This document shows, one piece after another, positions 31,230-55,972 of a stretch of 64,000 nt of DNA; position 1 is the stretch's first letter, and each line of letters begins with the position of its first letter. The notes beneath the pieces are model-generated. The model saw only the letters and a list, made by a program, of their open reading frames with translations. It had not been told where the DNA came from and did no database searches. This stretch comes from Cyanobium sp. (GTDB lineage Bacteria > Cyanobacteriota > Cyanobacteriia > PCC-6307 > Cyanobiaceae): assembly GCA_040399305.1 (NCBI GenBank), contig JBBASH010000001.1:52592-116591 (forward strand), given 5' to 3'. The position numbers were made by a program, and so were the translations under genes.

Positions 31230-31271
31230 TCCCCTGTGGCACGATCGGGGCAAGACCGTTTCCATCCCTCC

Positions 31272-33956
<2,685 letters not shown>

Positions 33957-34312: not shown

Positions 34313-35080
34313 TTAGGGGAGGTCGCGATCGAGTTGACGCAGCGTGTCGGCCACCTGGTGACGCAGGGTCTGGAAGGGGGTTGAGATCCGCAACTCATGC
34401 AGGTCGCCCTTATCGAGGTCGAGGCTGAGGGTTTGCACAATGCGGCCGGGCCTCGGGGCCAGGATGTGCACCCTCTGGGCTAACAACAGGGCTTCATCAA
34501 TGTCATGGGTGATCAGCAGCACGGAGAGGCCGGTGCTGCGCCAGAGGTTGTGGAGAAACTCCTGCATGGATTCGCGGATCTGCAGATCGAGAGCCCCAAA
34601 GGGTTCATCCAGCAGCAGCAGGCGGGGCTCGGCAGCCAGGGCCCGCGCGATGGCCACCCGCTGCTGCATGCCCCCGGAGAGCTCCCGGGGCAGCCGCTTG
34701 GCTGAATCAAGCAGCCCCACCACTTCGAGATAGAAGGCGGTGCGCTCCCGGATCTGGCCGCGCTCCAGGCCCTTGAGTTCCAGTCCGAAGGCCACGTTCT
34801 CGGCCGCCGTGAGCCAGGGGTAGAGGCTGTACTTCTGGAACACCATGCCCCGATCGGAGCCCGGTCCGCGGATCGGTTGGCCATCGAGGCTGAGGCTACC
34901 GCTGGTGGGTTTTTCCAGCCCTGCCACCAGGCGCATCAGGGTGGATTTGCCCGAGCCCGAACTGCCAAGCAGCGCCAGAAACTGGCCGGTATGCATGGTG
35001 AGGCTGATCTGGTCCAGCACCAGTTGCGCGGCCCTGCCATCGCCGAAACGTTTGCAGACGGAGTCGAGAACCAGATTCAT
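34313..35080 (-). CDS. ABC transporter ATP-binding protein (NitT/TauT family); last gene of the riboswitch-led operon
   Basis: ATG at 35080 (MNLVLDSVCKRF). Walker A GSSGSGKST, signature LSGGMQQRVAIARAL, Walker B LLLLDEPFGALD. Confidence 0.9.
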   Translation of the reverse strand: MNLVLDSVCKRFGDGRAAQLVLDQISLTMHTGQFLALLGSSGSGKSTLMRLVAGLEKPTSGSLSLDGQPIRGPGSDRGMVFQKYSLYPWLTAAENVAFGLELKGLERGQIRERTAFYLEVVGLLDSAKRLPRELSGGMQQRVAIARALAAEPRLLLLDEPFGALDLQIRESMQEFLHNLWRSTGLSVLLITHDIDEALLLAQRVHILAPRPGRIVQTLSLDLDKGDLHELRISTPFQTLRHQVADTLRQLDRDLP

Positions 35081-35108
35081 GGGGTTCCAGGAGGGGGCGG
35101 TACGGCGC

Positions 35109-35900
35109 TCATGTCGCCCAGGCACAGCTGCGTCGCATCAGCATGCGGAAGCCCAGATCGATCAGCAGGCCGATCAGGCCAATCACGATTAGGCCCAGGA
35201 AGATCTGATCGGTGCGAAGGAAACGCTGGGCCAGGGTGATGTGCTTTCCTAAACCGCTTTCGGCGGCAACGAGTTCGGCCACGATCACCAGGTTCCAGGC
35301 GGCCGCCATGTTGATGCGAAAAGCATCGAGCACCTGGGGGGCGATATAGGGCGTGATCACCCGCAGCAGCAGATCTCGCTTCTTGCCGCCGAGGGTGCGG
35401 GTGGTTTCGAGCAGTTCCCGCGGCACGAACTTCACCGCATCCATGATCATCAGGGTGTTGAAGAAGAGGGTGCCGATGAAGATCAGCAGTACCTTTGGTA
35501 GTTCACCCAAGCCGAAGTAGATGATCAGCAGCGGAATGAAGGCCGGCGCCGGCATGTAGCGCAGCAGGGCTAGCAGTGGCTCCAGCAAACGGGAGAAGGT
35601 GGTGTTCGTGCCCATGGCGATTCCCAGCGGCAGCGCCACCAGGGCCGAGAGGCCGAAGCCCCCGAGCACCCGCAGCACACTGGCGCTGATGTCGCGCCAG
35701 AGATCGCCGCTGGCCGCCTCCTCCTGGCCGGCGGCCACAACGGCGGCTGGTGTCGGCAGAAAGAGGGGGTCGACAACGCCGAGCCCGGCCACCAGGGTCC
35801 AGAGACCCAGCAGCACAGCGATGCCAGCCACCCCGAGAGACCAGGGATGGAGGAGCAGCCGGCGGAGTCGCTGGGCCGCCAAGGAGTCGGATTGGGCCAT
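35109..35900 (-). CDS. ABC transporter permease (NitT/TauT family)
   Basis: ATG at 35900. Six predicted TM segments. EAA-like loop region ...TRTLGGKKRDLLLRVITPYIAPQVLDAFR. Confidence 0.88.
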   Translation of the reverse strand: MAQSDSLAAQRLRRLLLHPWSLGVAGIAVLLGLWTLVAGLGVVDPLFLPTPAAVVAAGQEEAASGDLWRDISASVLRVLGGFGLSALVALPLGIAMGTNTTFSRLLEPLLALLRYMPAPAFIPLLIIYFGLGELPKVLLIFIGTLFFNTLMIMDAVKFVPRELLETTRTLGGKKRDLLLRVITPYIAPQVLDAFRINMAAAWNLVIVAELVAAESGLGKHITLAQRFLRTDQIFLGLIVIGLIGLLIDLGFRMLMRRSCAWAT

Positions 35901-35917
35901 GGGTACGGATGCGGGGA

Positions 35918-36940
35918 TCAGTTCGCGGCATTCACGAACTTCGGTTCCAACAGCCCATCAAGCTTCGGCGCGGTCTTGGCGAGGCCCACGGCCTGGAGGA
36001 AGGAGCTGATCTGCTCGGCCGCGAAGGGCAGCGAGGTCATGGTGGTGCCCGGTTTGAACACCTGGCGGTTCTGTTCAAGGCTGTAGATCGTGGTGCCGGC
36101 GTCGTAGGCCTTGTAGTCGGCCTCGCTCACCCCGGCGCGCTTGGCCAGGATCGCCAGGGAGGGGCCCGGCTCCGCCTTGATCTGGGCCAAGGTGGCAAAC
36201 CAGCTGTTCACGATCTTCTGCACCTTCTCAGGGTTTTTGGCCACGAATTCGCGGTTGCAAACGAGGTGATCGCTGATCGCCCCCGGGAAATCCTTCGAGC
36301 TGTAGAGGGTGGTGCTGCCGGGGCGCTTGAGGGCCTGGGTGGTGAAGGGCGCGAACACCCCCACCGCATCCACCTTGCCGGCCACGAAAGCCGCCGCCGC
36401 CGCCCCGGTCTCCAGGGGCACGAAGGTGATGTCCTTCTCGGAGATGCGGGCCTTCTTCAGCCCCAAGAGCAGCAAGTAATGATCCACCGTGCCCTGTTCG
36501 GCCGCCACCTTTTTGCCCTTCAGGTCCGCCACGCTGCGGATGCCGGGGCCGGCGATGATCTGATCGTTGCCGCTGGAGATGTCATTGGTGAGCACCACCT
36601 GGAGGTCGGCGCCGCCGGCCACCGAGGAGAGCGTGTCACCGAGGGTCTGGCTATTGCAGTCGAGCTGGCCGGCGTTGAGGGCATTGATCGAGTCGAGATA
36701 ACCATCGAACCAGGTGAGCGTGACCGGCACCCCGGCGGCGGTGAAGAGCCCCTTCTCCTCACTCACCTTCCAGGGGAACCAGCCGGGCCAGGCGCTGTAG
36801 CCGATCCGTACCGGCACGTCGCTCGCTGAGGGGCCAGGTTTGCTGCAACCGCCCAGGGAACTGGCGACCGCCCCGGCCAAGGCCAGGGCAGCCAGGGAGC
36901 GGATGCGGCTCGGGGAACGACGGGAGGAAGCGTTGTTCAT
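35918..36940 (-). CDS. ABC transporter substrate-binding lipoprotein (NMT1/THI5-like, NitT/TauT family)
   Basis: ATG at 36940. Lipobox LGGCSKPG. IGYSAWPGWFPWKV...LTWFDGYLDSINALNAGQLD is typical of nitrate/sulfonate/taurine-type binding proteins. Confidence 0.85.
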   Translation of the reverse strand: MNNASSRRSPSRIRSLAALALAGAVASSLGGCSKPGPSASDVPVRIGYSAWPGWFPWKVSEEKGLFTAAGVPVTLTWFDGYLDSINALNAGQLDCNSQTLGDTLSSVAGGADLQVVLTNDISSGNDQIIAGPGIRSVADLKGKKVAAEQGTVDHYLLLLGLKKARISEKDITFVPLETGAAAAAFVAGKVDAVGVFAPFTTQALKRPGSTTLYSSKDFPGAISDHLVCNREFVAKNPEKVQKIVNSWFATLAQIKAEPGPSLAILAKRAGVSEADYKAYDAGTTIYSLEQNRQVFKPGTTMTSLPFAAEQISSFLQAVGLAKTAPKLDGLLEPKFVNAAN

Positions 36941-37033
36941 GGCTCTGGGGGATGGAATTGGAACAGATCGGGGTCGTGGAAGGGGATGGCAGAGCGGGTC
37001 TGCGCCGATGGGCAGCAAGGGGCGCTCAGGCGA

Positions 37034-37777
37034 TCAATGGACCGCGCTGAGCAACGCGGCCGACGGTCCGTGCTGATCGGATGCCGGTGCAGCAAGGTTG
37101 GAGCGCTGCGAAGCGACCTGCTCGCGCAGCCACTGGTGCCAGGCCTCCAGGCCTTCGCCGCTGCTGGCCGAAACCTGCAGCACCCGGCAGCGGGGATTGA
37201 CCTGCAGGATGTGTTCCTCGATCCGTTCCACCTGAACCGTCAGGTAGGGCAGCAGATCGATCTTGGTGATCAGCACGCAGTCAGCCTCGCGGAACATCAC
37301 TGGGTACTTGAGGGGCTTGTCATCGCCTTCGGTGACGCTGAGTAAGGCCACCTTGCGGTGTTCGCCCACCTCGAACTCGGCCGGGCACACCAGGTTGCCC
37401 ACGTTTTCAACCCAGAGCAGGTCGAGGCCCGCCGGATCCAGCCGGTCCCGCAGCAGCCGCAGGCCGCCACTCACCATGGCGGCATCGAGATGACAGGCGC
37501 GGCCCGTGGTGATCGGCACCACCGGAATCCCCACGGCCTCCAGCCGTTGGGCATCGAGCTGGGTGGTCATGTCGCCCTCCAGCACGGCCATGGCGAAGTC
37601 TTGAGCCAGATGGGGCAGGCTGCGCTCCAACAGGGAGGTCTTGCCGGCGCCGGGGCTGCTCATCACATTGAGGCAGAGCAGGTTCCAGGCATCGAAGTGC
37701 TCGCGGTTGTGGGCGGCTTGGTGCTGGTTGGCCGCCAATAGGTTGAGACCCAGGGTGTCTTCCAGGGGCATGTGCAT
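37034..37777 (-). CDS. ghaB: HypB-like nickel-GTPase (GhaB-type accessory protein)
   Basis: ATG at 37777 (listed start 37786 is TTG). P-loop [29 protein letters not shown]. No His-rich N-terminal tract. Confidence 0.8.
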
Positions 37778-37782
37778 GGCGA

Positions 37783-38229
37783 TCAAGGACGAAGGGCGGA
37801 GGCGGGGAAGGGTGGGGTCGTGGCTGGGGGGGATTGGCCCACAGGGCCGAGGGATGCCGTGGCGGTGCCGGGTTGCGGGAGGTGGTAGTCCACGCTGCTG
37901 ATCCGCAATTCACGGCCCTGCACGATCTCCTCCATCGGGTGCTCGCAGCAGGGGGAGCGGTAGCCCCTCTCCGGCTCGGGCGCATAGGTGGCAGAACAAC
38001 GAAGGCAGCGCCCCAGCAACGCCACCGGTTCAATCGCCAGTTCCGCCCCCTCAAGCCAGCTATTGCGAATCGCGGCCTGCCAGGTGAAGACCAATTGGTC
38101 GGGCTCCACGCAGGTGAAGGCGCCCACCTGGAGGTGGACGGTGCCAACCCGGGGTACCTGGGGTGTGTGGCTCTGCCTCCAGCCCTCCATCGCCAGGAGT
38201 AGGGCTCGGGTCATGTCGACTTCGTGCAT
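37783..38229 (-). CDS. ghaA: HypA-like nickel metallochaperone (GhaA-type accessory protein)
   Basis: N-terminal MHE nickel-binding motif ([11 protein letters not shown]). Zn-site CLRC, with the second motif appearing as PCCEH rather than CxxC. Pro-rich C-terminal tail. Confidence 0.78.
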
Positions 38230-38233
38230 CGCC

Positions 38234-39430
38234 CTACCTCCAGCGTTGATCGACCTGCATGTTGCAGACCGGATTCAGCCAGGCGGGAGTCTGGCGGCGC
38301 GGCAATTGGCCGCTCACCACCAGGTGGGCCATGGTGTCGCAGATCACGCGGGTGGCCATCAGCGAAGTCATGTCGCTGACGTCGTAGGGAGGGGAAACCT
38401 CCACCACCTCGAGGCCGCAGACCGGCACATTGCGCACGATCAATTCGAGCAACTTCAGCGCTTCACGGGGCAGAAGCCCCCCGGGTTCGGGCCAGCCGGT
38501 GCCGGGCACAAAGCCGGCGTCGATGCAATCGATATCGAAGGAGATGTACACGCAGTCGGTGCCATCGGTGGCCCGCTCGATCGCATAACGGGCCGCCGCC
38601 TCCAGGCCCATGTCACAGATGTCGGTCACGGTGAGCACGTTCGTGCCCCGCTCCCGGCAGATCTTCACCCCCTCCCGAGGCACCTGCCAGCCGCCGATGC
38701 CGAGCTGCACCAAGTTTTCGGCAGGGGCATTGGCCATGTTGGTGGCATGGAACCAAGGGGTGGTGTGCATGCGTTCATCCAGGTCGGTTTCCTGGGTGTC
38801 GACATGGCGATCAAAGTGGATGATGCCCACCTTCTTATCGCCCAAGTGGCGGCAGACACCGCGCAGGGTGGGAAAGCCGATCGAATGGTCGCCGCCGAGG
38901 ATGATCGGGAAGGCGCCGCTGGCGAAGACGTGCGCCACCCCCTTAGAGATCTGATCGAAGCTCTTTTCGTTGTTGGCCGGAATCGTGAAGATATCGCCGA
39001 TATCGCACAACTTGATCTGCTCCCGCAGATCGACACCCATCTCGTAGTTGTAAGGGGTATAGAGGGCTGAGATGCGGCGAATCCCCTGGGGACCGAAGCG
39101 GGTTCCAGGGCGGTAGGTGGTGCCGCTGTCGTGGGGAACGCCAAGAATGGCGACATCGAAATCGCCGACGCGATTCACATCCTCCACATAGGGAGCCTTC
39201 ATGAACGTGTTGATGCCCGCGTAGTGGGGCAACTCACCGCGGGAGAAGGTGGAGATGCGCCGATCCACAATGCTGTCGGCTGCCTCAAGGCCCAAACGCA
39301 ATCCCTGGTCGACCTCCTGCTGCCAGCCGGTGAGCGGCAGGCGCGACTCCTTCTCAAGGGCCCTCAGACCTTCACTGGGATGAACACGCTCAAACCCTTC
39401 CTCGGGGGAAGGTCCGGACACAGAAGCCAT
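38234..39430 (-). CDS. gdmH: Arginase/agmatinase-family hydrolase; candidate Ni-dependent guanidine hydrolase
   Basis: ATG at 39430, TAG stop at 38234. Ureohydrolase motifs GGDHSIGFP, IHFDRHVDT, SFDIDCIDAGFVPGTGWPEPGG. 398 aa with an N-terminal extension. Preceded by a guanidine-I riboswitch and followed by HypA/HypB-like genes. The family call is firm. Guanidine specificity is inferred from context. Confidence 0.75.
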   Translation of the reverse strand: MASVSGPSPEEGFERVHPSEGLRALEKESRLPLTGWQQEVDQGLRLGLEAADSIVDRRISTFSRGELPHYAGINTFMKAPYVEDVNRVGDFDVAILGVPHDSGTTYRPGTRFGPQGIRRISALYTPYNYEMGVDLREQIKLCDIGDIFTIPANNEKSFDQISKGVAHVFASGAFPIILGGDHSIGFPTLRGVCRHLGDKKVGIIHFDRHVDTQETDLDERMHTTPWFHATNMANAPAENLVQLGIGGWQVPREGVKICRERGTNVLTVTDICDMGLEAAARYAIERATDGTDCVYISFDIDCIDAGFVPGTGWPEPGGLLPREALKLLELIVRNVPVCGLEVVEVSPPYDVSDMTSLMATRVICDTMAHLVVSGQLPRRQTPAWLNPVCNMQVDQRWR

Positions 39431-39454: not shown

Positions 39455-39572
39455 CGGCCTCCCGGGCTTTTATCCCTCCGTGTCATGGACCCTGCCAGGC
39501 AGGAGCCATGGGATTTCTCTTGGACCTGACACCCCTGAACCTGGCGGCTTTGGGACCGGAACCCTAGAAATC
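39455..39572 (-). promoter_or_regulatory. Guanidine-I (ykkC) riboswitch aptamer
   Basis: The minus-strand RNA reads GAUUUCUAGGGUUCCGGUCCCAAAGCCGCCAGGUUCAGGGGUGUCAGGUCCAAGAGAAAUCCCAUGGCUCCUGCCUGGCAGGGUCCAUGACACGGAGGGAUAAAAGCCCGGGAGGCCG. It contains the three conserved ykkC blocks CUAGGGUUCCGG, GGUCC(A/G)AGAG and ACACGG.GGGAUAAAAGCCCGGGAG in the correct order and spacing, with a variable hairpin (CAUGG...CCAUG) between them. It ends 24 nt upstream of the ATG at 39430. Confidence 0.85.
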
Positions 39573-39679
39573 ATGTCCGCAAACCCATGGTGATGGGGGC
39601 GTTCGGGGAGCGTGGTACCAACCGCTACCGATGCCATGGCTCCGCCATCGACCTGCCTGGGTCCACACCTGGGGGCCCC

Positions 39680-41287
39680 TCAGATGCCGGCGTACTGGAA
39701 GCGCAGGCTGGCGGGATCGCCCCAATCGCCCTCAGCCCGGTAACCGCGACTGTTGTGGCAGAGGTGCCTGAGGCTCCAGAAGAGGGGTTCCGGACTGGAG
39801 AGGCCGAGGGTGGAGGCCAGCTCATCGAGGGTTCTGGCGCTGCCATCGCTGAGCAGGGCCTCCAGCCGCGACTGCAAGGCCAGCACCTCGGCGGCGGCCT
39901 TCTTTCCAGCCTCCACACCGGGCTGGTGGTAGGCGTTGATGTCGATCAGTTCGGCGTAGAGACCGACGGCCCGCTCAAAGAGGGCGATCAGGGCACCGAG
40001 AGCCGCGGCATCGAAGCGCCGCAGGGTGATGGTGAGGCTCTGGCGGCCTCCCTCGGCCAGGGCCGAGCGGGTGCCCTGCAGGAAACCCTCCAGGAAATCC
40101 TCGGGTCGCTCTCCGGCGATCGGCCCGATGTCGGCGGGATCGTCGAGGGCCTCAATGAAGGTCACGAAGAAGTTGTCGAGGCCATCACGCAACTGCTGCA
40201 CGTAAGCGTGCTGGTCGGTGGATCCCTTGTTGCCGTAGACAGCCAGGCCCTGGTGGACGGTTTGCCCCTGACGGTCGCGGTCCTTGCCGAGGGACTCCAT
40301 CACCAGTTGCTGGAGGTAGCGGCTGAATACCTCCAGACGATCGCGGTAGGGCAGCACCACCAGGTCGCGGCGGCCCTTGCCTTCGCCAGCGGCATACCAA
40401 GCGGCAGCCATCAAGGCGGCGGGATTGTCCCGCAGGCTCGGGCGCCGGGTGAGGGCATCCATGGCGGCGGCACCGGCCAGGAAGCCGCGGAGGTCGGCAG
40501 CGATCAGGGCGGCGGGCAACAGTCCAACGGCGCCGGTGATGCTGGTGCGACCTCCAACCCAGTCGGGAAGGTCGAAGCGGGCCAGCCAGCCCTCTGAAGC
40601 GGCGAGAGCGTCGAGCTGGCTGCCGGCCATCGTGACGGCCACGGCTTGGCGGGCCCAGTCGCCACCGAGGGCCTCAAGGCGGGCCCGGGCCTGCTCCATG
40701 CCGATGCGGGGTTCCGGAGTTCCGCCGGATTTGCTCACCACCACCACCAGGGTGGTGCGGAGCCGCTCACCCAAGGCCGCCAGGGTGCGGCTGAATCCCT
40801 GGGGATCGACGTTGTCGAAGACATGGAAGGGAAGGCCACGGCCTTCCTGCTGCAGGGCGCGGATCATCAGCAGCGGCCCCAGGCCCGACCCGCCGATGCC
40901 GATCCAGAGCACATCGGTAAAGGGGGTGCCGGCGGGGGAGGCGATCCTGCCGGCCAACAGATCGGAGCCAAAGCTCTCGATCCGATCGGTCTCACGGGAA
41001 ATCAGGGCGCCCGCCTGGGGATCCGGGGCCAGGGAGGGGTTCCGCAGCCAGTAGTGACCGACCTGACGGTGTTCGTCGGCATTGGCGATCGCTCCGCCCT
41101 CCAGGGCCTCCATGGCGGCGAAGGCTGCACTGAAGCGGGGTTCGAGGGCCTCCAGATCGGCGTCGCCGAGGGCCATGCGACTCACATCCAGCCAGACACC
41201 GAGATCCGAGTCATGCCAAAGGAGCGCGCAGAAACGCTGCCAGAGACCAGCGCTATCGCGGTCGTTGCTGAAGGACGGGGACGGCAT
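39680..41287 (-). CDS. pgi: Glucose-6-phosphate isomerase
   Basis: ATG at 41287. VVVSKSGGTPEP, GSTDQHAYVQQLRDG, and INAYHQPGVEAGK at the C-terminal region. Confidence 0.95.
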   Translation of the reverse strand: MPSPSFSNDRDSAGLWQRFCALLWHDSDLGVWLDVSRMALGDADLEALEPRFSAAFAAMEALEGGAIANADEHRQVGHYWLRNPSLAPDPQAGALISRETDRIESFGSDLLAGRIASPAGTPFTDVLWIGIGGSGLGPLLMIRALQQEGRGLPFHVFDNVDPQGFSRTLAALGERLRTTLVVVVSKSGGTPEPRIGMEQARARLEALGGDWARQAVAVTMAGSQLDALAASEGWLARFDLPDWVGGRTSITGAVGLLPAALIAADLRGFLAGAAAMDALTRRPSLRDNPAALMAAAWYAAGEGKGRRDLVVLPYRDRLEVFSRYLQQLVMESLGKDRDRQGQTVHQGLAVYGNKGSTDQHAYVQQLRDGLDNFFVTFIEALDDPADIGPIAGERPEDFLEGFLQGTRSALAEGGRQSLTITLRRFDAAALGALIALFERAVGLYAELIDINAYHQPGVEAGKKAAAEVLALQSRLEALLSDGSARTLDELASTLGLSSPEPLFWSLRHLCHNSRGYRAEGDWGDPASLRFQYAGI

Positions 41288-41481
41288 GGAGGCGGGGGGT
41301 CCTGGCTCTCCGGGGAGCCCTGCAGCCGCATCCAAGCCGATCCCAGGGGGGCTTGGGAAGATCGGCAGACGCTGAGGCGGGCGGCTGTGTGGTCCACCCG
41401 ACAGACCGAACCGCTCCGCCGGTTAAAGCTGAAGAATGTTGGAAACTGGAGGTGAGATCCTTCGGCGTTCATTCCCTGGCC

Positions 41482-49078: not shown

Positions 49079-51625
49079 GTGGAAGCCGCACTCACTGGGG
49101 TGGCCCTTGCCCTCACCCTGGCGTTCCTCCTGGAGAATCCGGCGCAGGCCGGGGAACGATCGGGGAAAGGAAAGGGGCGAAGCGAGGACCCCCTAGGGGA
49201 AGGACCCAGACCGGGTGGGGCGCCTGCTCCCCCGACACGAGGGTCGGCTGCTCTCCCGTTAGGAGGAGCGGACCCCGGGATCGACCGTGGTGGGACCACC
49301 GGGAGCGTTGCCGTCCCATCGGGGCCTACGGGCATCTACGGCGGCGCCGGGTGGGGATCCCTGGCGGCTAGTGGAGGGCTGGCGATGGGTTCGCCACCCC
49401 AAGCGCCCTGGCCCACCTCCGCTGGCCCGGCAGCATCGGAGTCCACGGGGCCGGGAGTCGTGGCCGGTAGAGCCAGCCCCTTGGCGACGGAAACGGGGTC
49501 AGAGCCCCCAACTGGCGAAGCCACCTCCACCGCCCTTCCGGCCGGGTTCCCCGATGCCGATCGGGGGGCTGGTCGCACCGCTCCAGTGGCGGAGAGCGCC
49601 GCTCCCAGGGCTTCGGCGGACGTGGGGGACGGCTCCACCCCGATGCCTGCTCACCAGAGTTTTCAGATCCTCATCGACCGGCGGGAGAGCGTGGTGGCCC
49701 GCAGCGTCGAAGGCCCGGCCCTCATGGTGTTCGACGCCAACCAGGTGGGCCTGCAGGGGGCACGGCTGGATCTCAGCCAGGCCCGGATCCCGGTGCTCAG
49801 CATCGACTCCCTGCGCCGGATCGAGGGGCTGGCGCTCTCTGTTCTGGGGACGGCGGAACTCCACCAGCGGAGCCTCAATCAGGCGGTCAGCGGCAGTGCG
49901 ATCGAGGGCAGTGCGGATGGAGGGAGCTACCGGATCCGGGCCTTGGATGTCCTGCTGCTCGGCCTGCGGGGGGGGCAGGGAGGTCTGATGGCGGTGGATG
50001 ACCAGGTCGAGGGTTTAAGGGAGAGCCTCCTGGCCGCTGACGGAGAGCAGAGCCAGACCAACGTGGAGATCGGGGCGGAACTGCAGCTGACCCTGGGAGG
50101 ATCCGCCGGATCCGGCACCCTGGAGGGGGAGCTCAACCTCACCAGCACGGCGGTGAACGGCTCCACGATTCGCCTCGGCGATGGTGCCGACAACGTGCGC
50201 ATCGCGAGCCGCATCAGCCGTGAAGAAGCACCCGACCCCTTCGCTTCCGCCCCTTCGGCCCCTGCCTGGGGCGCTGTGGCGGTGAACGGCAGGGCCGTGG
50301 GACTGCTGGATAGTCAGCTCAGCACAGGGGGCGGACCTGACCGGGTGACGATTGAGGCCGGGGCCGGGGCCCTTGAGGCGGTGGCCTTGGACAACTCCCT
50401 GGTCCAGCTGGGGGAGGGGGATGACAGCCTGCTGCTGCGGGGGGCCGTGATCGGTTCCCGCATCGAGCCGGGGGAGGGGCGCAATCGGGTGGAGGTGAGC
50501 GGAGCGGTCGACGACAGCGTGCTGGTGTTGAACCGGGGCGGTGACACCGGCATCACCCTCTCCGCAGCAGACGACAGCCTTGTGCTCGAAGGTGACGGGG
50601 GTGTCACGCTCCTGGCCGGCGGTGGCGATGACCGGATCCGAGTGGAGGGACGCGCGATCGGGCTGTTGGATGGCGGTGATGACCAGGACACGCTGGAGAT
50701 GGCCCGTTCCAGCCATGCAGGTTCGCCGGCTCCGATCGGGCCCCAGCAGTTGGAGCTGCAGGGCCTAAACCGTGGCCAGATCGATGGACTCACGTTCAGT
50801 TCCGTTGAGGCGATCCAGCTGAGCGATGGTGGCAACCATGTGGTGATCGACCCCCTCGGCAGCCTGGAGGGTCCGCTCTGGGGCGGAGCTGGTGCGGACA
50901 CCCTGGATTACGGCGCCTGGACGAGCGGTGTTTCGGTGGATCTGGACAGCGGCACCGCCGAGGCCATCGGTGGCGGTAGAGCGGGAGGGGCCCCAGGCTT
51001 CGACGGGGTCCTCGGCGGTCTGGGGGCCGACCATCTGGTGGGCGCGGCCGACACCCTCTGGCTCGATGGGGGTGCCGGTGACGACTGGCTTGAGTTCAAC
51101 CCAACGGACCGGATGGAGACGGGTGCCTCATTCCGGCTCACGGGTAGCGGCGGCCGCGACCTCTTCGTGCTGGCGGGCCTGGATCCCCTTCTGCTGGCCT
51201 CACCCGCCGCTGGGGGGTTTCCCGGATCCCCCCTACTCAGCGCGAGCATCCCATCACCTCGCCTGCTGCCCAGTCTGGAGGATCTGACGCTGGTGATCGG
51301 ACCGCGGGGGGAGCTGCAACTCAGTGACCGGCTGGGCTGGCGTGCCGGCGGCATCCTCGCGGCTGCCGATCCAGCCGCGAATGGCCTGGTGGAACTTCTG
51401 CCATCCGGGCTAGAGGGTCTGGGCCAAAGCCGCAGGCTGCCGATCGCCCCCCTGCCGGCCCTGCTGGCGGGCATCGGCACGGGGCCACCGCAGCTGGCCA
51501 TCGCCACCGATTCGGGAGCCAGCCAACTGGTGCTGCTCGGACCTGCCCGCCTCAGCGTGGAGCTAGCGCTCCTCCCAGCCTTCCATAGCCCCGTATCCTC
51601 AGCCGGCGCGCCGCTCCAATCCTGA
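49079..51625 (+). CDS. Large exported protein with degenerate Ca-binding (RTX-like GGxGxD / GxGDD) repeats
   Basis: GTG at 49079. Sec-like N-terminus ALTGVALALTLAFLLENPAQA. Pro/Gly/Ala-rich linker. Repeats LGDGADNVRI, GEGDDSLLLRG, GEGRNRVEVSG, GGGDDRIRVEG, GGAGADTLDYG, GGLGADHLVG, GGAGDDWLEF. Confidence 0.7.
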   Translation: MEAALTGVALALTLAFLLENPAQAGERSGKGKGRSEDPLGEGPRPGGAPAPPTRGSAALPLGGADPGIDRGGTTGSVAVPSGPTGIYGGAGWGSLAASGGLAMGSPPQAPWPTSAGPAASESTGPGVVAGRASPLATETGSEPPTGEATSTALPAGFPDADRGAGRTAPVAESAAPRASADVGDGSTPMPAHQSFQILIDRRESVVARSVEGPALMVFDANQVGLQGARLDLSQARIPVLSIDSLRRIEGLALSVLGTAELHQRSLNQAVSGSAIEGSADGGSYRIRALDVLLLGLRGGQGGLMAVDDQVEGLRESLLAADGEQSQTNVEIGAELQLTLGGSAGSGTLEGELNLTSTAVNGSTIRLGDGADNVRIASRISREEAPDPFASAPSAPAWGAVAVNGRAVGLLDSQLSTGGGPDRVTIEAGAGALEAVALDNSLVQLGEGDDSLLLRGAVIGSRIEPGEGRNRVEVSGAVDDSVLVLNRGGDTGITLSAADDSLVLEGDGGVTLLAGGGDDRIRVEGRAIGLLDGGDDQDTLEMARSSHAGSPAPIGPQQLELQGLNRGQIDGLTFSSVEAIQLSDGGNHVVIDPLGSLEGPLWGGAGADTLDYGAWTSGVSVDLDSGTAEAIGGGRAGGAPGFDGVLGGLGADHLVGAADTLWLDGGAGDDWLEFNPTDRMETGASFRLTGSGGRDLFVLAGLDPLLLASPAAGGFPGSPLLSASIPSPRLLPSLEDLTLVIGPRGELQLSDRLGWRAGGILAAADPAANGLVELLPSGLEGLGQSRRLPIAPLPALLAGIGTGPPQLAIATDSGASQLVLLGPARLSVELALLPAFHSPVSSAGAPLQS

Positions 51626-51638
51626 TCCTGGATTGGGC

Positions 51639-52931
51639 TCAGCGCATCGATCGGGTGGAGTCGAGGAATCCCCCGATCCGGTCGTAGATCAGGGCCAGCA
51701 ACGGCCGGGTGCCGAGCTGGATCAGGCCACTCACCGCCATCCCCGCCCTGAGGGGATAGGGGCGCCCCTGGTGGATCAAGGCCGAGCGATCGAGCCGCAC
51801 CACCGCCGGGAACATCTCCTGGTTCGTGCCTGGATCGGCCGGCAAGGCATCCGCACCAATGCGGGTGAGGGTGCCCCGCAGGGAGCCGTAGTCGGTGAAG
51901 GGGAGAGAGGTGATGCGCACATCCACGGGCATGCCGGGGGCGAGGAAGCCGATATCGCGGTTCGAGATGGCCAGTTCCACTTCCAGCGCCCGGCGGGGCA
52001 CGATGCGGAGCAACGGACGGGCTATCGCGAGTTCCCCCTCCTTGGCCTTCAGATCAAAGACCTCGCCGGCGACAGGGGCCAGGATCCGGCCCAGCTTCAG
52101 GCGGGACCGCAGCTGTTCCAGCCGCGTGCTGGTTTCCAGCAGCTGGCGGCGGGCTTCGTCGTATCGCTCGTAGAGCTGCCGGCGGTTGAGCGAGCCCACC
52201 TGCTCCAGGTTGAGCTCACTCTCGGCCAACCCGCGCTGGGCCGAGAGGATCTCCTGGCGGGTGCGGCGGATCGTGCCCTCGAGGTCCACCTGGCGCTCCT
52301 CCTGGCGATCGAGCTCCAGCCTGGAGATCGCCCCCTGGCGCACGAGTCCCTCCATGCGGCGATGAATGCCCTTATTGATTGCCTCCTTTCGCTCAAGAGC
52401 CTGAAGGTCGGAGATCTGCTGGCGCACGGTGGCCACGCTGCGCAGACGGCGCTGGTCGGCGGCACGACGGCGCAGGTCGGTGTCGTGCATCTGCTCCGCG
52501 AGTTCACGCCCATCCACCGCTAACGCCGGCAGACCCAGTTGTTGGGCCGCCTGGTTGGCATCCTTGCGCCACAGCTCGCGTAGGGCCAGCAGATCGCGAC
52601 TCTGGCGGCCGGCATCGAGTTCCTCCAGCTGCACCAGGGGTTGGCCGGCCCGCACGCTCTGCCCCTCGCGCACCAGCACCCTTCGGATCGGCGCCTGAAG
52701 CGGAGCACTGACATCGAAGCTGCCGCCCATCGGCCGGAGCTTGCCGGTGGCGGTCACGGAGCTGTCGATGCGGGCCACCCAGCCCACCACGGCTCCGAAG
52801 GCACTCAGCCCCGAGAGGCTCCAAATGATTGCCCGGCTCCAGCCGCGGGTGCTGCGGGGCAGGTGGGTGCGGCGCTGCGGTGGGGAGCCGGGAGGCCGTG
52901 GCGGCCTGGCGGGGTCGAAGACCTGGGTCAT
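51639..52931 (-). CDS. HlyD-family type I secretion membrane fusion protein
   Basis: ATG at 52931 overlaps the ABC exporter stop (ATGA). N-terminal TM segment, long coiled-coil, lipoyl/beta-barrel segments (GQPLVQLE..., ILAPVAGEVFDL, PGMPVDVRI). Confidence 0.9.
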   Translation of the reverse strand: MTQVFDPARPPRPPGSPPQRRTHLPRSTRGWSRAIIWSLSGLSAFGAVVGWVARIDSSVTATGKLRPMGGSFDVSAPLQAPIRRVLVREGQSVRAGQPLVQLEELDAGRQSRDLLALRELWRKDANQAAQQLGLPALAVDGRELAEQMHDTDLRRRAADQRRLRSVATVRQQISDLQALERKEAINKGIHRRMEGLVRQGAISRLELDRQEERQVDLEGTIRRTRQEILSAQRGLAESELNLEQVGSLNRRQLYERYDEARRQLLETSTRLEQLRSRLKLGRILAPVAGEVFDLKAKEGELAIARPLLRIVPRRALEVELAISNRDIGFLAPGMPVDVRITSLPFTDYGSLRGTLTRIGADALPADPGTNQEMFPAVVRLDRSALIHQGRPYPLRAGMAVSGLIQLGTRPLLALIYDRIGGFLDSTRSMR

Positions 52932-55900
52932 GACACCACCTCCAGGGCCTTCACGGGGGGCGCCTCCTCGGCGCTGCGGCCCTGCTGACGGAAGAGGGCG
53001 TAGTAGGCCCCCCGTCGCTGCATCAGCTCGTCATGGGTGCCCACCTCGAGAACGGCGCCGTTGCCCATGCAGACGATCCGGTCCGCCTGAACAATCGAGG
53101 AGAGGCGGTGGGTGATGAACAGCACCGTGCAACCCCGGAGCGCGGCCATCAGGTTTTCGCTCACCACCCGCTCCGTCTGGTAGTCGAGGGCGGAGGTGGC
53201 CTCATCCATGATCAACAGCCGCGGTTTCTGGAGGATCGTGCGGGCGATAGCGATCCGTTGCCGCTGGCCACCGGAGAGGCTGCTGCCCCGCTCGCCCACC
53301 TGGGTGGCGTAGCCGGCGGGGAGGGCCATGATGAAGTCATGGGCGGCGGCGATTCGCGCGGCTTCCACCATGTCCTCGGGGCTCGCCTCCGGATGGGTGA
53401 GGGTGATGTTCTCCTCGATCGAGCCGTCGAACAGCACGGTGTCCTGCGGCACGATGCCGATCTGGCGCCGCAGGGAATAGAGCTCCACCTTGCTGATGTC
53501 GATGCCATCGATCAGCACCATGCCCTGCTCGGGTTGGTAGAGACGGGCTACAAGTTTGGTGAGGGTGCTCTTGCCCGAGCCACTGGCCCCCACGATCGCC
53601 ACGAACTGCCCGCGGGGAATCGTGAGATCGAGGCCATGCAGCAGCAGCGGCGAGGAGGGTTGATAGCGGAATTGGATCGCCCGGAATTCGATCTCCCCCT
53701 CGATCGGTGGCATCACCATGCGGGTGGCGTTATCGGCGGCTGCCTCCTGGGGGTTGTCGATCACATCGCTCAGACGCTCCAGAGAAAGGGCGGTTTCCTG
53801 CACGGATTGCCAGATGGAGGTCATGCGCAGCAGGGGGCCGGTGACGTAGCCGGCGATGATGCGGAAGGCGATCAGTTCGCCCAAGCTCAGGGAACCTTGA
53901 AGCACCAGGGCGGCGCCGGCCCAGATCACGATCAATCCGGAAAGCTTGTTGAGAAAGCTGCTGATTGAGCCGGCTGTGGTGGAGAGAAGCGTGTTGTCGA
54001 AACCCTCGGCCACATAATCGCTATAGAGGTCCTGCCACTTCCAACGGCAGCGCAGTTCGATGTTCTGGGCTTTCACGGTCATCATGCTGCTCAACACTTC
54101 CACCAGGTGGCTCTGGGTGCGGGCATTGGCCACGGCCCGGCTCTGGAGCTGGTCCCGCACGATCGGCGACACCGAGAGCGTGAGCAGCACCAGCACCGGG
54201 ATCACCGCCAGGGTGAAGAGGGTGAGCTGCCAGCTGTAGATCAGCATGACCACGATATACAGAACTGCAAAGATGGCATCAAGAATGGTGGTGAGGGCCG
54301 TGCCCGTGAGAAAACCCCTCACCTTCTCCAATTCACCGATGCGGCTGCTCACCTCGCCCACCGAACGACGATCGAAGTAACTGAGCGGTAGCCGCAGCAG
54401 ATGGTCGATGATCTGGGTGCCGAGGGCTAGATCGATGCGATTGGTCGTATCCACGAACAGAAAGGTGCGTAGGCAGAGCAGCAGACCCTCGAACAGGGCA
54501 AAGACCACTAGCAACAGGCCCAAAATCCCCAGAGCCGAAGGGCTGTTATTGATGATCACCTTGTCGATCACCTGCTGAATCAGCAGCGGATTGACAAGAC
54601 CAAAAAGTTGCACGAAGAAGCTCGCCAGCAACACCTCCAGCAGCACCGCCCGGTGTTGGCGCAGGGCCGGGGCGAACCAACTGAAGCCGAAGCGCCGCCT
54701 CGGGGTCAGGTCATTGACCCGCAGGCTGAGCACCTCCCCTGCGTCGCCCCACTGCTCCCGGAAGGCCTCCAGGGTTAACTCCTGGTTGCCCACCGCAGGG
54801 ATCCCCACCACGAGATGGCGCCGGTCGCTGCGATAGATCACGGCCAATCCGTTGCCCCAGCGAATCAGCAGGGGGGGGCTGAGCTGCACCAAGGCCTCGG
54901 CGCGCAGCTCCAGCAGCTGGGTCTGCAGGCCGATCGATTCGGCCAAGGCACCGGCCAGGGCCAGGGAGGCCTGGCCATGCCGCGTCACCTGCTCACCGAT
55001 CACCCGCCGCAGCAGGTCGCGGCGGAAGGGAAGCCCAAGGTGATCGCTGATCATCCGGAACGCCGCCACGGGTGATTCCAGCGGTCCCACCCCCTTCACC
55101 CAGGGAAAGGCCTCGGGTCCCTGACGCTCCTGATCCGGCGGTTCCGGCGGCAGGGCCGGATCGATCGGTGTGGCGGCGGTGATTGCGGCCGGATCGAGGG
55201 CCTGTCGCTGTTGCTCCCAGTTCGCCAGCAGCTTCGACTGCCAGCCGTTCCCCGCGGCCTCACCCCCCACGGGTATAGCCGGTTCGAGGATCGCCTCAAG
55301 CCTTTGGCGATCGATACCGAGCAACCGCACCGGTTGGGGCAACGTGATCGGTTCATTGGGCAGCAGGCTGCCGATCGGCAACGGCCCGCCCGCCACGAGC
55401 CAGAGCCGCTCCCCATCCGGGGCAATCCCATTGCCGCCTTCGGGCCCCGGGGTGCGCACCAGGCAGCCGTCGGCCAGTTGGTTGGCCGCCTCCAGCACCT
55501 CCTCGCCGACTGGGCGCGGATACTCCCTGAGATAGGCATCCAGCACCCCGAACAGCTCCGCCGCCGTGACGCTCTGCCGCACCCGTGCGGCGAGATCCGG
55601 CCGGTCCGCGATCTCCTGGTGCAGCGCGTCCCAGGGAATCGCCACCACCACGATGTTGGAGGAAGCGAGCAGGGTTTCCCAGCAGCGTCCGCAACTCACC
55701 AGGCTCCAGCCCAGCACCGAGCCGGGCTGGAGGCGCTGCAGGGTGGCCACACCCCGCGGCAGACGGGACGAAAACACCACGGATCGCACCGTTCCTTCCA
55801 CCAAAAGGTGGAGCTGCTCCGGGGGCTGATCGGTGCGGCAGATCGGCTGTCCCTGCTGGAAGCTCTGCAGCTGGGCCCTGGACGAAAGGCGCAGCAGCAG

Positions 55901-55972
55901 ATCCTCCGGTTGGTCGGCCAGGAAGGGGAAGCAGCGCAGCAGCTCCTCGATCCGTGTGGTGGTGGTGGCCAT
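52928..55972 (-). CDS. Type I secretion ABC exporter with N-terminal cyclic-nucleotide-binding-like domains and a degenerate C39-like domain
   Basis: 1014 aa. N-terminal cNMP-domain-like FPFLADQPEDLLLRLSSRAQLQSFQQGQPICRTDQPPEQLHLLVEGTVR. The C39-like segment (FPWVKGVGPLESPVAAFRMISDHLGLPF...LIRWGNGLAVIY) contains no Cys at all. Six-TM exporter domain. Walker A GASGSGKST, signature LSGGQRQRIAIAR, Walker B LLIMDEATS. Confidence 0.92.
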   Translation of the reverse strand: MATTTTRIEELLRCFPFLADQPEDLLLRLSSRAQLQSFQQGQPICRTDQPPEQLHLLVEGTVRSVVFSSRLPRGVATLQRLQPGSVLGWSLVSCGRCWETLLASSNIVVVAIPWDALHQEIADRPDLAARVRQSVTAAELFGVLDAYLREYPRPVGEEVLEAANQLADGCLVRTPGPEGGNGIAPDGERLWLVAGGPLPIGSLLPNEPITLPQPVRLLGIDRQRLEAILEPAIPVGGEAAGNGWQSKLLANWEQQRQALDPAAITAATPIDPALPPEPPDQERQGPEAFPWVKGVGPLESPVAAFRMISDHLGLPFRRDLLRRVIGEQVTRHGQASLALAGALAESIGLQTQLLELRAEALVQLSPPLLIRWGNGLAVIYRSDRRHLVVGIPAVGNQELTLEAFREQWGDAGEVLSLRVNDLTPRRRFGFSWFAPALRQHRAVLLEVLLASFFVQLFGLVNPLLIQQVIDKVIINNSPSALGILGLLLVVFALFEGLLLCLRTFLFVDTTNRIDLALGTQIIDHLLRLPLSYFDRRSVGEVSSRIGELEKVRGFLTGTALTTILDAIFAVLYIVVMLIYSWQLTLFTLAVIPVLVLLTLSVSPIVRDQLQSRAVANARTQSHLVEVLSSMMTVKAQNIELRCRWKWQDLYSDYVAEGFDNTLLSTTAGSISSFLNKLSGLIVIWAGAALVLQGSLSLGELIAFRIIAGYVTGPLLRMTSIWQSVQETALSLERLSDVIDNPQEAAADNATRMVMPPIEGEIEFRAIQFRYQPSSPLLLHGLDLTIPRGQFVAIVGASGSGKSTLTKLVARLYQPEQGMVLIDGIDISKVELYSLRRQIGIVPQDTVLFDGSIEENITLTHPEASPEDMVEAARIAAAHDFIMALPAGYATQVGERGSSLSGGQRQRIAIARTILQKPRLLIMDEATSALDYQTERVVSENLMAALRGCTVLFITHRLSSIVQADRIVCMGNGAVLEVGTHDELMQRRGAYYALFRQQGRSAEEAPPVKALEVVS

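Follow-up and report, generated by a model that had tools for sequence, protein, structure and literature searches.

Introduction

The closest described counterpart of the locus examined here is the sll1077-sll1082 system of Synechocystis sp. PCC 6803 (Wang 2021, PMC8390497; PNAS 2025, PMC12704784). Its guanidine hydrolase was the subject of Funck 2022 (Nature 603:515, doi 10.1038/s41586-022-04490-x), as summarized in PMC10927577, PMC11399263 and PMC11410670. NtcA control of gdmH has been demonstrated in Synechocystis, and Sll1080 (GimA) binds guanidine with a KD of ∼97 nM (PMC12704784). The Synechocystis riboswitch has been described as terminator-disrupting. The hydrogenase of this organism is matured by HypA1 and HypB1 only, and not by HypA2 and HypB2, which are GhaA and GhaB.

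Marine Synechococcus, Cyanobium and Prochlorococcus carry a 'guanidinase' cluster designated SynCAG_001/ProCAG_004, and the spread of the guanidine system in marine Synechococcus has been reported (Doré et al., bioRxiv 10.1101/2022.08.17.504260). Prochlorococcus genomes are small and streamlined (PMC12704784). A guanidinase of the same enzyme clade is found in Nitrospira inopinata (PDB 9FEK; PMC11410670). The metformin/dimethylguanidine hydrolases MfmAB and MefH are also Ni-dependent ureohydrolases with operon-encoded HypA/HypB activators and interface N-terminal loops, but they are heteromeric and act on a different substrate (PMC10927577, PMC11399263).

Results and Discussion

Organization of the cluster

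The window is the 64-kb stretch of DNA analysed here. It comes from a high-GC (66.8%) picocyanobacterium of the Cyanobium/Synechococcus type. A guanidine cluster lies on the minus strand in the order NtcA box, guanidine-I riboswitch, gdmH, ghaA, ghaB and gimABC (34313-37018), with the following features.

39615..39628, no strand assigned: candidate NtcA-binding site GTAGCGGTTGGTAC, GTA-N8-TAC, palindromic
39457..39578, minus strand: guanidine-I (ykkC) riboswitch aptamer, Rfam RF00442
39431..39463, minus strand: short expression platform with a GGGAGG (39463-39458)/CCUCCC (39443-39438) hairpin that has no U-tract and leaves 7 nt to the ATG
38234..39430, minus strand: gdmH, 398 aa, Sll1077 orthologue (PF00491; PDB 7ESR/7OI1)
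37783..38229, minus strand: ghaA, 148 aa, HypA-like, predicted Ni metallochaperone (PF01155)
37034..37777, minus strand: ghaB, 247 aa from ATG 37777, HypB-like, predicted Ni-GTPase
35918..37018, minus strand: gimA, probable true start ATG 36940 (PF09084/PF13379, TIGR01728; synteny)
35109..35900, minus strand: gimB, ABC permease (PF00528; synteny)
34313..35125, minus strand: gimC, ABC ATPase, maximal ORF (PF00005, E=6e-35; synteny)

An earlier note on this DNA had described three tightly packed genes behind a guanidine riboswitch, separated by 4-5 nt, and had matched them to Synechocystis Sll1077 (GdmH) with GhaA and GhaB. The description was confirmed and the match is supported. The RF00442 match and the ORFs were confirmed, and the gaps could be read directly: the gdmH TAG is followed by GGCG (4 nt) and the ghaA ATG, and the ghaA TGA by TCGCC (5 nt) and ATG 37777 of ghaB. 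Gene content and gene order match those of sll1077-sll1082 for all six genes, and a riboswitch of the same class and an NtcA-type box are located upstream. Of 80 related cyanobacterial loci, nearly all keep the gdmH-ghaA-ghaB-gimABC order, Prochlorococcus included. These 80 loci were taken from at least 593 genomes found, order was judged in loci long enough, and Synechocystis was not among them. Pfam scans of ∼46 candidate genes across the 64-kb window turned up neither a hydrogenase nor a urease gene, as the earlier note had stated for structural genes.

The cluster is, with high confidence, interpreted as a guanidine-assimilation operon encoding a Ni guanidine hydrolase, its chaperones and an importer under a riboswitch. 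Orthology, catalytic and specificity residues, the riboswitch and gene order come from the window itself, while nickel dependence, substrate, chaperone role, transporter substrate and NtcA control come from published orthologues. Chance is excluded for the cluster features, whose E-values range from 1e-11 to 1e-228.

The guanidine hydrolase GdmH

GdmH matched Synechocystis Sll1077 (PDB 7ESR/7OI1) with E=2.7e-228, and 320/381 residues are identical (84%). Identity was 88% in the core and 78% in the N-terminal extension (residues 18-91). In the comparison that had been proposed earlier, Sll1077 versus agmatinases, the former gave 761 bits and the latter 129-141 bits (E∼1e-36 to 1e-40). The Nitrospira inopinata guanidinase 9FEK scored 587 bits (E=1.5e-175). 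Metformin/dimethylguanidine hydrolases scored 136-145 bits, and no non-guanidinase ureohydrolase exceeded 172 bits, the best being proclavaminate amidinohydrolase or guanidinobutyrase.

The arginase/ureohydrolase fold was identified by PF00491 (E=3e-78, residues 92-366). Because this domain starts at residue 92, GdmH has an N-terminal extension of ∼91 aa; an N-terminal loop preceding the arginase domain is described in PMC10927577. The three motifs that had been noted, GGDHS (179), DRHVD (207) and SFDIDCID (297), were all found along with the extension. Metal-ligand and Thr/Trp residue definitions, and the 'inferred guanidinase' criterion, were taken from PMC11410670. All six metal ligands (H182, D207, H209, D211, D299 and D301) are present in GdmH and in 79-80/80 homologues. 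The guanidine-specificity pair T105/W313, equivalent to Thr97/Trp305 of Sll1077, is found in 80/80 homologues, as are H222 and E344. GdmH does not differ from Sll1077 in any metal-ligand or specificity residue, and the two proteins share their N- and C-terminal extensions. The comammox enzyme has the Thr/Trp pair and the metal ligands too, but its N-terminal extension is a different one and the C-terminal extension common to the other two is missing; the comammox guanidinase loci are without Ni chaperones or an ABC transporter.

Agmatinase SpeB was considered as an identity for this protein and rejected. The agmatinase equivalog TIGR01230 was barely passed (176.6 bits against a cut-off of 174.3), the larger agmatinase model NF002564 was failed (217 vs 302), and the guanidinase Thr/Trp pair is present.

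On this sequence evidence GdmH is an unambiguous orthologue of a characterised Ni-dependent guanidine hydrolase. By analogy with that enzyme, to which it is 84% identical, it is predicted to convert guanidine to urea and ammonium in a Ni2+-dependent reaction.

The predicted chaperones GhaA and GhaB

The second gene had been described as HypA-like with an MHE motif, and GhaA does match PF01155 (E=6e-24) and begin with MHE. M1-H2-E3 is invariant in a 14-sequence alignment and lines up with the MHE of H. pylori and T. kodakarensis HypA. The score of GhaA was below the HypA equivalog cut-off (78.8 vs 88.1). As a single sequence GhaA had no match in the PDB; the 14-sequence profile matched PDB HypA with E∼1e-7. 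The homologues retrieved with GhaA as query were all close Cyanobium-type relatives, and neither Sll1078 nor a true HypA was among them.

The zinc site of GhaA consists of C75-L-R-C78 followed by S92-P93-C94-C95 in place of C-P-x-C. The canonical two-CxxC site is therefore not found, and four Cys are kept with altered spacing. In the alignment to H. pylori HypA, C91 corresponds to S92 and C94 to C95 of GhaA. S-P-C-C was present in 41/41 Synechococcus/Cyanobium/Prochlorococcus orthologues, compared with C-P-x-C in 35/35 other cyanobacteria. The tail of the protein is rich in Pro, Thr and Ala, with 9 Pro among the last 33 residues. The PCCEH sequence and Pro-rich tail had been listed as local peculiarities; they are real features of GhaA, and they separate it from the Synechocystis protein, but they characterize the clade and are not local, S-P-C-C being general among the picocyanobacterial orthologues. 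The S-P-C-C motif speaks against a canonical HypA and not against orthology to gdmH-linked GhaA.

GhaB is encoded by a mechanical ORF of 250 aa from TTG 37786. This TTG is probably unused, since all 67 orthologues start with MH, 47 residues ahead of the P-loop. The proposal that the third gene encodes a HypB-like GTPase agrees with a score of 277 bits against the HypB equivalog TIGR00073 (cut-off 121), an E-value of 3.6e-46 with H. pylori HypB 4LPS, and the presence of a P-loop and a TKIDL motif. The GAGKT P-loop and the CH...C metal site are conserved in 67/67 orthologues. GhaB lacks a His-rich N-terminus, as had been remarked; this is a trait of the family rather than of the locus, as none of the 67 orthologues has one.

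GhaA and GhaB share folds and families with canonical HypA and HypB (H. pylori 2KDX/6G81 and 4LPS; T. kodakarensis 3A43). GhaA has the MHE and the first CxxC, and GhaB has the P-loop, the bridging CH...C metal site and the G-motifs. Unlike the canonical proteins, GhaA is distant in sequence with a rearranged zinc motif, the N-terminus of GhaB is neither His-rich nor of the CxxCGC type, and the client is, by analogy, predicted to be a ureohydrolase and not a hydrogenase. Orthology to the Synechocystis pair is argued from synteny and from resemblance to genes found next to gdmH in other cyanobacteria. Identity to non-picocyanobacterial gdmH-linked counterparts was 40-47% for GhaA and 55-68% for GhaB; the syntenic orthologues of Microcystis, Acaryochloris, Nostoc and others served as proxies for Sll1078 in the GhaA comparison. 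GhaB is predicted, again by analogy, to deliver Ni to GdmH in a GTP-dependent manner.

HypA and HypB of H. pylori serve both hydrogenase and urease, and the PDB names of 2KDX and 4LPS say likewise. GhaA and GhaB might similarly be general Ni chaperones that also supply urease or another Ni enzyme. We consider this unlikely. The gdmH, ghaA and ghaB genes co-occur across cyanobacteria, and their 4-5 nt spacing behind a guanidine-only switch implies that the chaperones are made only with guanidine. A general role is compatible with chaperone service to GdmH and would only widen the clientele.

The riboswitch and its expression platform

The RF00442 match scored 73.7 bits (gathering score 63, E=3.3e-11), was full length (model positions 1-107), and stopped 26 nt ahead of the gdmH ATG. 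No intrinsic terminator, that is a hairpin plus U-tract, was found on the minus strand between the aptamer and this ATG. The hairpin search listed the platform hairpin on the plus strand. In the group of cyanobacterial loci to which Synechocystis belongs the platform is ∼90-130 nt with a terminator; in the window it is 42 nt with none. Terminator-like elements were detected in 2/31 short-platform loci and 29/31 long-platform loci.

A duplex-energy test for pairing between the C-rich linker and the aptamer was significant in 8/21 relatives for the core and 2/21 for the 3' half. In the window itself it was not significant (p=0.36 and p=0.33, respectively), the complementarity being no greater than base composition would give; the combined p-values are untrustworthy because the sequences are related. 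RNAalifold, applied to 21 short platforms, recovered the invariant aptamer P3 only, with no covariation for an alternative helix, and the C/U-rich elements do not align. In the minimum free energy fold of the whole leader, GACACGGAGG of the aptamer pairs with gdmH codons 2-5; this fold does no better than shuffled sequences (z=-0.91).

Since there is no terminator, the picocyanobacterial switch probably works at the level of translation initiation or of some other step that does not involve a terminator; the switching mode of the short platform, switching helix included, is one that we infer. It is conceivable, though we would rather doubt it at present, that the picocyanobacterial module constitutes a distinct variant. 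Such a variant would have lost the terminator, would lie ∼42 nt from the start codon under non-terminator control, in contrast to the terminator-disrupting mode reported for this riboswitch class, and would bind zinc in GhaA through a CxxC and a vicinal Cys-Cys, fixed across Synechococcus, Cyanobium and Prochlorococcus.

A candidate NtcA site and the importer

The aptamer begins, at its 5' end, ∼42 nt downstream of the centre of GTAGCGGTTGGTAC. No other perfect GTAN8TAC occurs in the 64-kb window, where 0.33 are expected. The position of the site suggests an NtcA-activated class II promoter with a start site at about the start of the aptamer. In many other cyanobacterial loci a comparable site precedes the aptamer by 56-110 nt. 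A perfect box is missing from most of the nearest Cyanobium relatives, so that NtcA control at the window is no more than plausible.

A NitT/TauT-type substrate-binding protein, a permease and an ATPase are all encoded downstream of ghaB. From ATG 36940, GimA has a Tat-like RR signal and a lipobox LGGC. The true start of gimC may be at ATG ∼35080. GimABC of the window is predicted to be a high-affinity guanidine importer by analogy with the Synechocystis proteins. In Synechocystis, gimABC is transcribed separately under NtcA, whereas gimA of the window begins 15-93 nt after ghaB and no GTAN8TAC with ≤1 mismatch was detected in 36900-37060. Together with the terminator-less short platform, the undetected internal transporter promoter makes for modest differences from Synechocystis.

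The window has the composition reported by Doré et al. for SynCAG_001/ProCAG_004 of the same clade, namely a ykkC riboswitch, speB2 (gdmH), hypA, hypB and a TauABC-like transporter, and the functional reading is the same. It differs in lacking the Rieske Fe-S gene that most of their genomes carry downstream. The close relative L004 has the Rieske gene and also, inserted after ghaB and before gimA, a glutamine-synthetase-like gene; the latter is absent at this position in the window. The leuS gene is directly downstream of gimC.

Proposed function and database labels

Under nitrogen limitation NtcA would probably activate the promoter just upstream of the riboswitch, and binding of guanidine by the aptamer would allow expression of the downstream genes. 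GimABC would bring in guanidine when its external concentration is low. GhaA, with an N-terminal MHE nickel site and a structural zinc site, and the GTPase GhaB would load Ni2+ into GdmH. GdmH would then be a hexameric enzyme of the ureohydrolase fold whose dinuclear nickel centre splits free guanidine into urea and ammonium.

An enzyme of the GdmH clade might instead have a substituted guanidine as its real substrate, such as methylguanidine or a guanidino acid. Ureohydrolase specificity shifts with few changes, as in the metformin and dimethylguanidine hydrolases, 16% of residues are unlike Sll1077, and the Km of guanidinases for guanidine was measured to be high (PMC11410670). Against this, no specificity residue or active-site motif differs from Sll1077, the aptamer of guanidine-I riboswitches shows high selectivity for free guanidine, and the orthologue of the linked transporter binds guanidine with a nanomolar KD. 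We regard a substituted substrate as very improbable and free guanidine as the probable one.

That the annotation is right, with SpeB making polyamines and HypA/HypB maturing a hydrogenase or urease encoded elsewhere, is largely refuted and hardly to be credited: the narrow pass of the agmatinase equivalog, the pass of the HypB equivalog by GhaB and the agreeing public names favour it, but GdmH scores far higher with Sll1077 than with agmatinases and fails NF002564, it has the Thr/Trp pair behind a guanidine-specific riboswitch, Sll1077 degrades guanidine and not agmatine, HypA2/HypB2 are unneeded for the Synechocystis hydrogenase, GhaA fails the HypA equivalog, and the trio is conserved in Prochlorococcus. 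We know of no hydrogenase in Prochlorococcus.

The gene cluster is ordinary and only the database labels are wrong. The picocyanobacterial cluster has already been described in the Doré et al. 2022 preprint and the Klähn-lab PNAS 2025 paper. The biology of the guanidine hydrolase, chaperones, importer, riboswitch and NtcA was published in 2021-2025, and the cluster of this clade in 2022. The clade-specific differences, a terminator-less platform and S-P-C-C, are footnote-level and not a discovery claim. The labels 'agmatinase' and 'hydrogenase maturation HypA/HypB' persist in genomes and metagenome bins of cyanobacteria by the hundreds, where they give a false view of polyamine and hydrogen metabolism and hide guanidine as a picocyanobacterial nitrogen source. 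The earlier note had anticipated such mislabelling, and the public labels for the exact proteins do read 'agmatinase' and 'hydrogenase nickel incorporation protein HypA/HybF'. The identical protein in the same arrangement occurs on two independent metagenome contigs.

Organization of the gdmH locus

The three genes that the earlier note had read as a nickel-dependent guanidine hydrolase with its nickel chaperones (37034-39430) were found on the minus strand with the predicted family assignments, and every detail of that observation held. They belong to a six-gene unit arranged in the order NtcA box, riboswitch, gdmH, ghaA, ghaB, gimA, gimB, gimC. The gimABC genes lie downstream of ghaB on the same strand, outside the interval covered by the note.

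Features of the locus and its flanks
39680-41335, minus: pgi, flanking
39615-39628: candidate NtcA box, GTA-N8-TAC, perfect consensus
39457-39578, minus: guanidine-I riboswitch aptamer, RF00442
38234-39430, minus: gdmH, arginase family, 398 aa, PF00491, E=3e-78
37783-38229, minus: ghaA, HypA-like, 148 aa, PF01155, E=6e-24
37034-37786, minus: ghaB, HypB-like GTPase, PF02492 (mechanical ORF)
35918-37018, minus: gimA, NitT/TauT-type substrate-binding protein, probable true start ATG 36940
35109-35900, minus: gimB, permease
34313-35125, minus: gimC, ATPase
31236-33956, plus: leuS, flanking

From ATG 36940, gimA encodes a Tat-like RR signal and a lipobox. For ghaB, ATG 37777 rather than the overlapping TTG 37786 is the likely start, because 67/67 GhaB orthologues begin with 'MH...' exactly 47 residues ahead of the P-loop. 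Given this start the gaps between the genes are the 4-5 nt reported previously. Read directly, the gdmH stop TAG is followed by GGCG (4 nt) and the ghaA ATG, and the ghaA stop TGA by TCGCC (5 nt) and ATG 37777. An identical GdmH, preceded by pgi and followed by a HypA-like gene, was present on two independent metagenome contigs; the arrangement therefore does not stem from misassembly. Pfam scans of ~46 candidate genes across the 64-kb window found no hydrogenase or urease genes, as the earlier note had maintained. What the scans did identify was of the usual housekeeping kind (sigma factor, metH, chlH/cobN, uvrC, leuS, pgi, purN, argC, ribBA and others).

Identity of the hydrolase

PF00491 begins at residue 92 of GdmH, leaving the N-terminal extension noticed earlier at ~91 aa. 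Among all PDB sequences the best match was 7ESR/7OI1, the Synechocystis guanidine hydrolase Sll1077 (E=2.7e-228, 761 bits, query 18-398), followed by 9FEK (E=1.5e-175), the Nitrospira inopinata guanidinase (PMC11410670). Other ureohydrolases scored ≤172 bits; agmatinase identity was rejected, with true agmatinases at 129-141 bits vs 761 for Sll1077. GdmH and Sll1077 are identical at 320/381 positions (84%); identity is higher in the catalytic core (88%) than in the N-terminal extension (78%). The two do not differ in the motifs GGDHS, DRHVD, SFDIDCID and EVVEVSP.

Thr97 and Trp305 set the guanidine specificity of the Synechocystis enzyme, according to Funck et al. (2022) as cited in PMC11410670, which also names the residues that bind the metals and two more that act in catalysis. 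GdmH from the window has 10/10 equivalents (T105, W313, H182, D207, H209, D211, D299, D301, H222 and E344), and these positions are kept in 79-80/80 homologues. With its top score to Sll1077 and all ten residues present, the protein qualifies in every respect, at the level of sequence, as a GdmH-type guanidinase.

Sll1077 breaks down guanidine and not agmatine (PMC8390497), and Funck et al. (Nature 603:515), as cited in later papers, showed it to be Ni-dependent and activated by GhaA/GhaB. GimABC imports guanidine, with a GimA KD of ~97 nM; marine Synechococcus are described as having these genes 'frequently present' (PMC12704784). The cluster was already reported in Synechococcus, Cyanobium and Prochlorococcus, with a ykkC riboswitch and speB2, the sll1077 orthologue, by Doré et al. 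(bioRxiv 2022), who propose that hypA/hypB insert Ni and that a TauABC-like transporter imports guanidine. The reading of the earlier note is thus supported, and is already known and published for this clade. What remains of interest is the persistent misannotation, a terminator-less riboswitch platform and an S-P-C-C zinc motif; the latter two are clade-level variants, and neither affects the functional reading.

Accessory proteins

GhaB clearly belongs to the HypB family of GTPases (TIGR00073, 277 bits; H. pylori HypB, E=3.6e-46), with the P-loop and the Cys-His...Cys G-domain metal site kept in 67/67 orthologues. GhaA has an MHE N-terminus and is a divergent HypA paralogue. It falls under the NCBIfam HypA equivalog cut-off (78.8 vs 88.1), and as a single sequence it matched nothing in the PDB. 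A profile was needed to align it with HypA of H. pylori (full length, E~1e-7) and T. kodakarensis (residues 1-84, E~1e-7). Synechocystis hydrogenase needs HypA1/HypB1, not HypA2/HypB2 (PMC4517062); the latter pair has since been renamed GhaA/GhaB, maturases loading Ni into GdmH.

The supposed local peculiarities of these proteins are all real but not local. The second zinc motif of GhaA, PCCEH in the window, reads S-P-C-C in 41/41 Synechococcus/Cyanobium/Prochlorococcus orthologues and C-P-x-C in 35/35 other cyanobacteria. In the profile alignment H. pylori HypA C91 falls on S92 of GhaA and C94 on C95, so one predicted zinc ligand has shifted by two residues; all four cysteines are retained, two of them now vicinal. 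The residue following CC need not be His (Prochlorococcus has CCNFN). GhaA tails in the Cyanobium group are rich in Pro/Thr/Ser/Ala and vary in length from 0 to 50 residues, and the Pro-rich tail in the window, with 9 Pro among 33 residues, is one of this set. A His-rich or CxxCGC N-terminus was found in none of the 67 GhaB orthologues.

An F-T-C-V-E-P motif (GhaA residues 38-43) is invariant in 14/14 aligned GhaA orthologues. In the profile alignment no Cys of H. pylori or T. kodakarensis HypA falls on its Cys40. E. coli HypA carries a similar FSCVE. In an uncultured Synechococcus MAG (L023:4353-5444) the GhaA and GhaB frames share a single 373-aa ORF, which could be a natural HypA-HypB-like fusion or result from a frameshift/assembly error.

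Regulation

The RF00442 aptamer scored 73.7 bits (gathering score 63, E=3.3e-11), bearing out the guanidine riboswitch seen earlier; 26 nt lie between its end and the gdmH ATG. Aptamer motifs precede gdmH in most related loci. The distance from conserved core to ATG is 38-52 nt in the Synechococcus/Cyanobium group, window included, where 2/31 loci have a hairpin plus U-tract. It is about 80-210 nt in other cyanobacteria (one locus is closer), where a terminator is present in 29/31 loci and uses the aptamer's CCCGGGAG as its 5' arm. This long platform matches the terminator-disrupting ON mechanism described for the riboswitch class and inferred for Synechocystis.

The window platform has no terminator; a GGGAGG/CCUCCC hairpin without a U-tract follows the aptamer and ends 7 nt upstream of the ATG. 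An alternative mechanism, probably translational, we only infer, because complementarity between the C/U-rich linker and the aptamer 3' half is no more than composition predicts in the window (p=0.33-0.36) and RNAalifold found no covariation. In some relatives this complementarity exceeds composition.

Riboswitch control seems to have been dropped in part of the clade. No guanidine-I riboswitch reached the Rfam gathering score upstream of gdmH in Synechococcus sp. MIT S9452 (L002), two Prochlorococcus genomes, Vacuolonema and one MAG (with L002: L030, L033, L043, L070). All five have gdmH and 4/5 the accessory and transporter genes; L043 shows gdmH only. In L002 a perfect NtcA box lies 177 nt upstream of gdmH instead.

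In Synechocystis gdmH is under NtcA and riboswitch control (PMC12704784). The candidate NtcA box, within the 100-nt pgi-riboswitch spacer, is the sole perfect GTA-N8-TAC in the window (0.33 expected). Its centre lies ~42 nt upstream of the aptamer 5' end, the spacing of a promoter activated by NtcA. A perfect site is lacking there in most of the closest Cyanobium relatives. Whereas Synechocystis has a separate NtcA-driven gimABC transcript (PMC12704784), no NtcA-like box was found upstream of gimA in the window. Therefore gimABC may be co-transcribed with gdmH; a promoter without an NtcA box is also conceivable.

Relatives and gene order

When one genome per species was scanned, at least 593 genomes proved to encode a close relative. 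The best 80 of these were all cyanobacterial, the nearest being Cyanobium and Synechococcus (88-93% protein identity), consistent with the window GC of 66.8%. When the six proteins were compared with the 80 loci by tblastn, the gdmH-ghaA-ghaB-gimABC order was found in almost all sufficiently long loci; about a dozen Prochlorococcus single-cell genomes also have it. In many Cyanobium/Synechococcus relatives a glutamine-synthetase-like gene (PF00120; L004:12313-13677) separates ghaB from gimA, and gimC is followed by a gene for a Rieske/ring-hydroxylating oxygenase alpha subunit (PF00355 + PF00848; L004:16194-17465), with similar spacing in L005, L008-L016 and L019-L022. Unlike these relatives, the window has the compact six-gene version without either gene. 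A Glutamine-II riboswitch (RF01704, 58.4 bits; L033:20886-20948), another nitrogen-related RNA switch, lies ~10 kb downstream of a Prochlorococcus gdmH cluster.

Other features of the window

Three large ORFs have high GC3 and no Pfam match at E<=1e-6.

Large ORFs
49079-51625, plus: 848 aa
56826-59006, minus: 726 aa
59046-61769, minus: 907 aa

They adjoin genes at 51639-52931 and 52928-55972, both minus, for a membrane-fusion protein of the HlyD family and an ABC exporter that carries a cyclic-nucleotide-binding domain at its N-terminus. The region may encode a type-I-secretion-like system with uncharacterised substrates.
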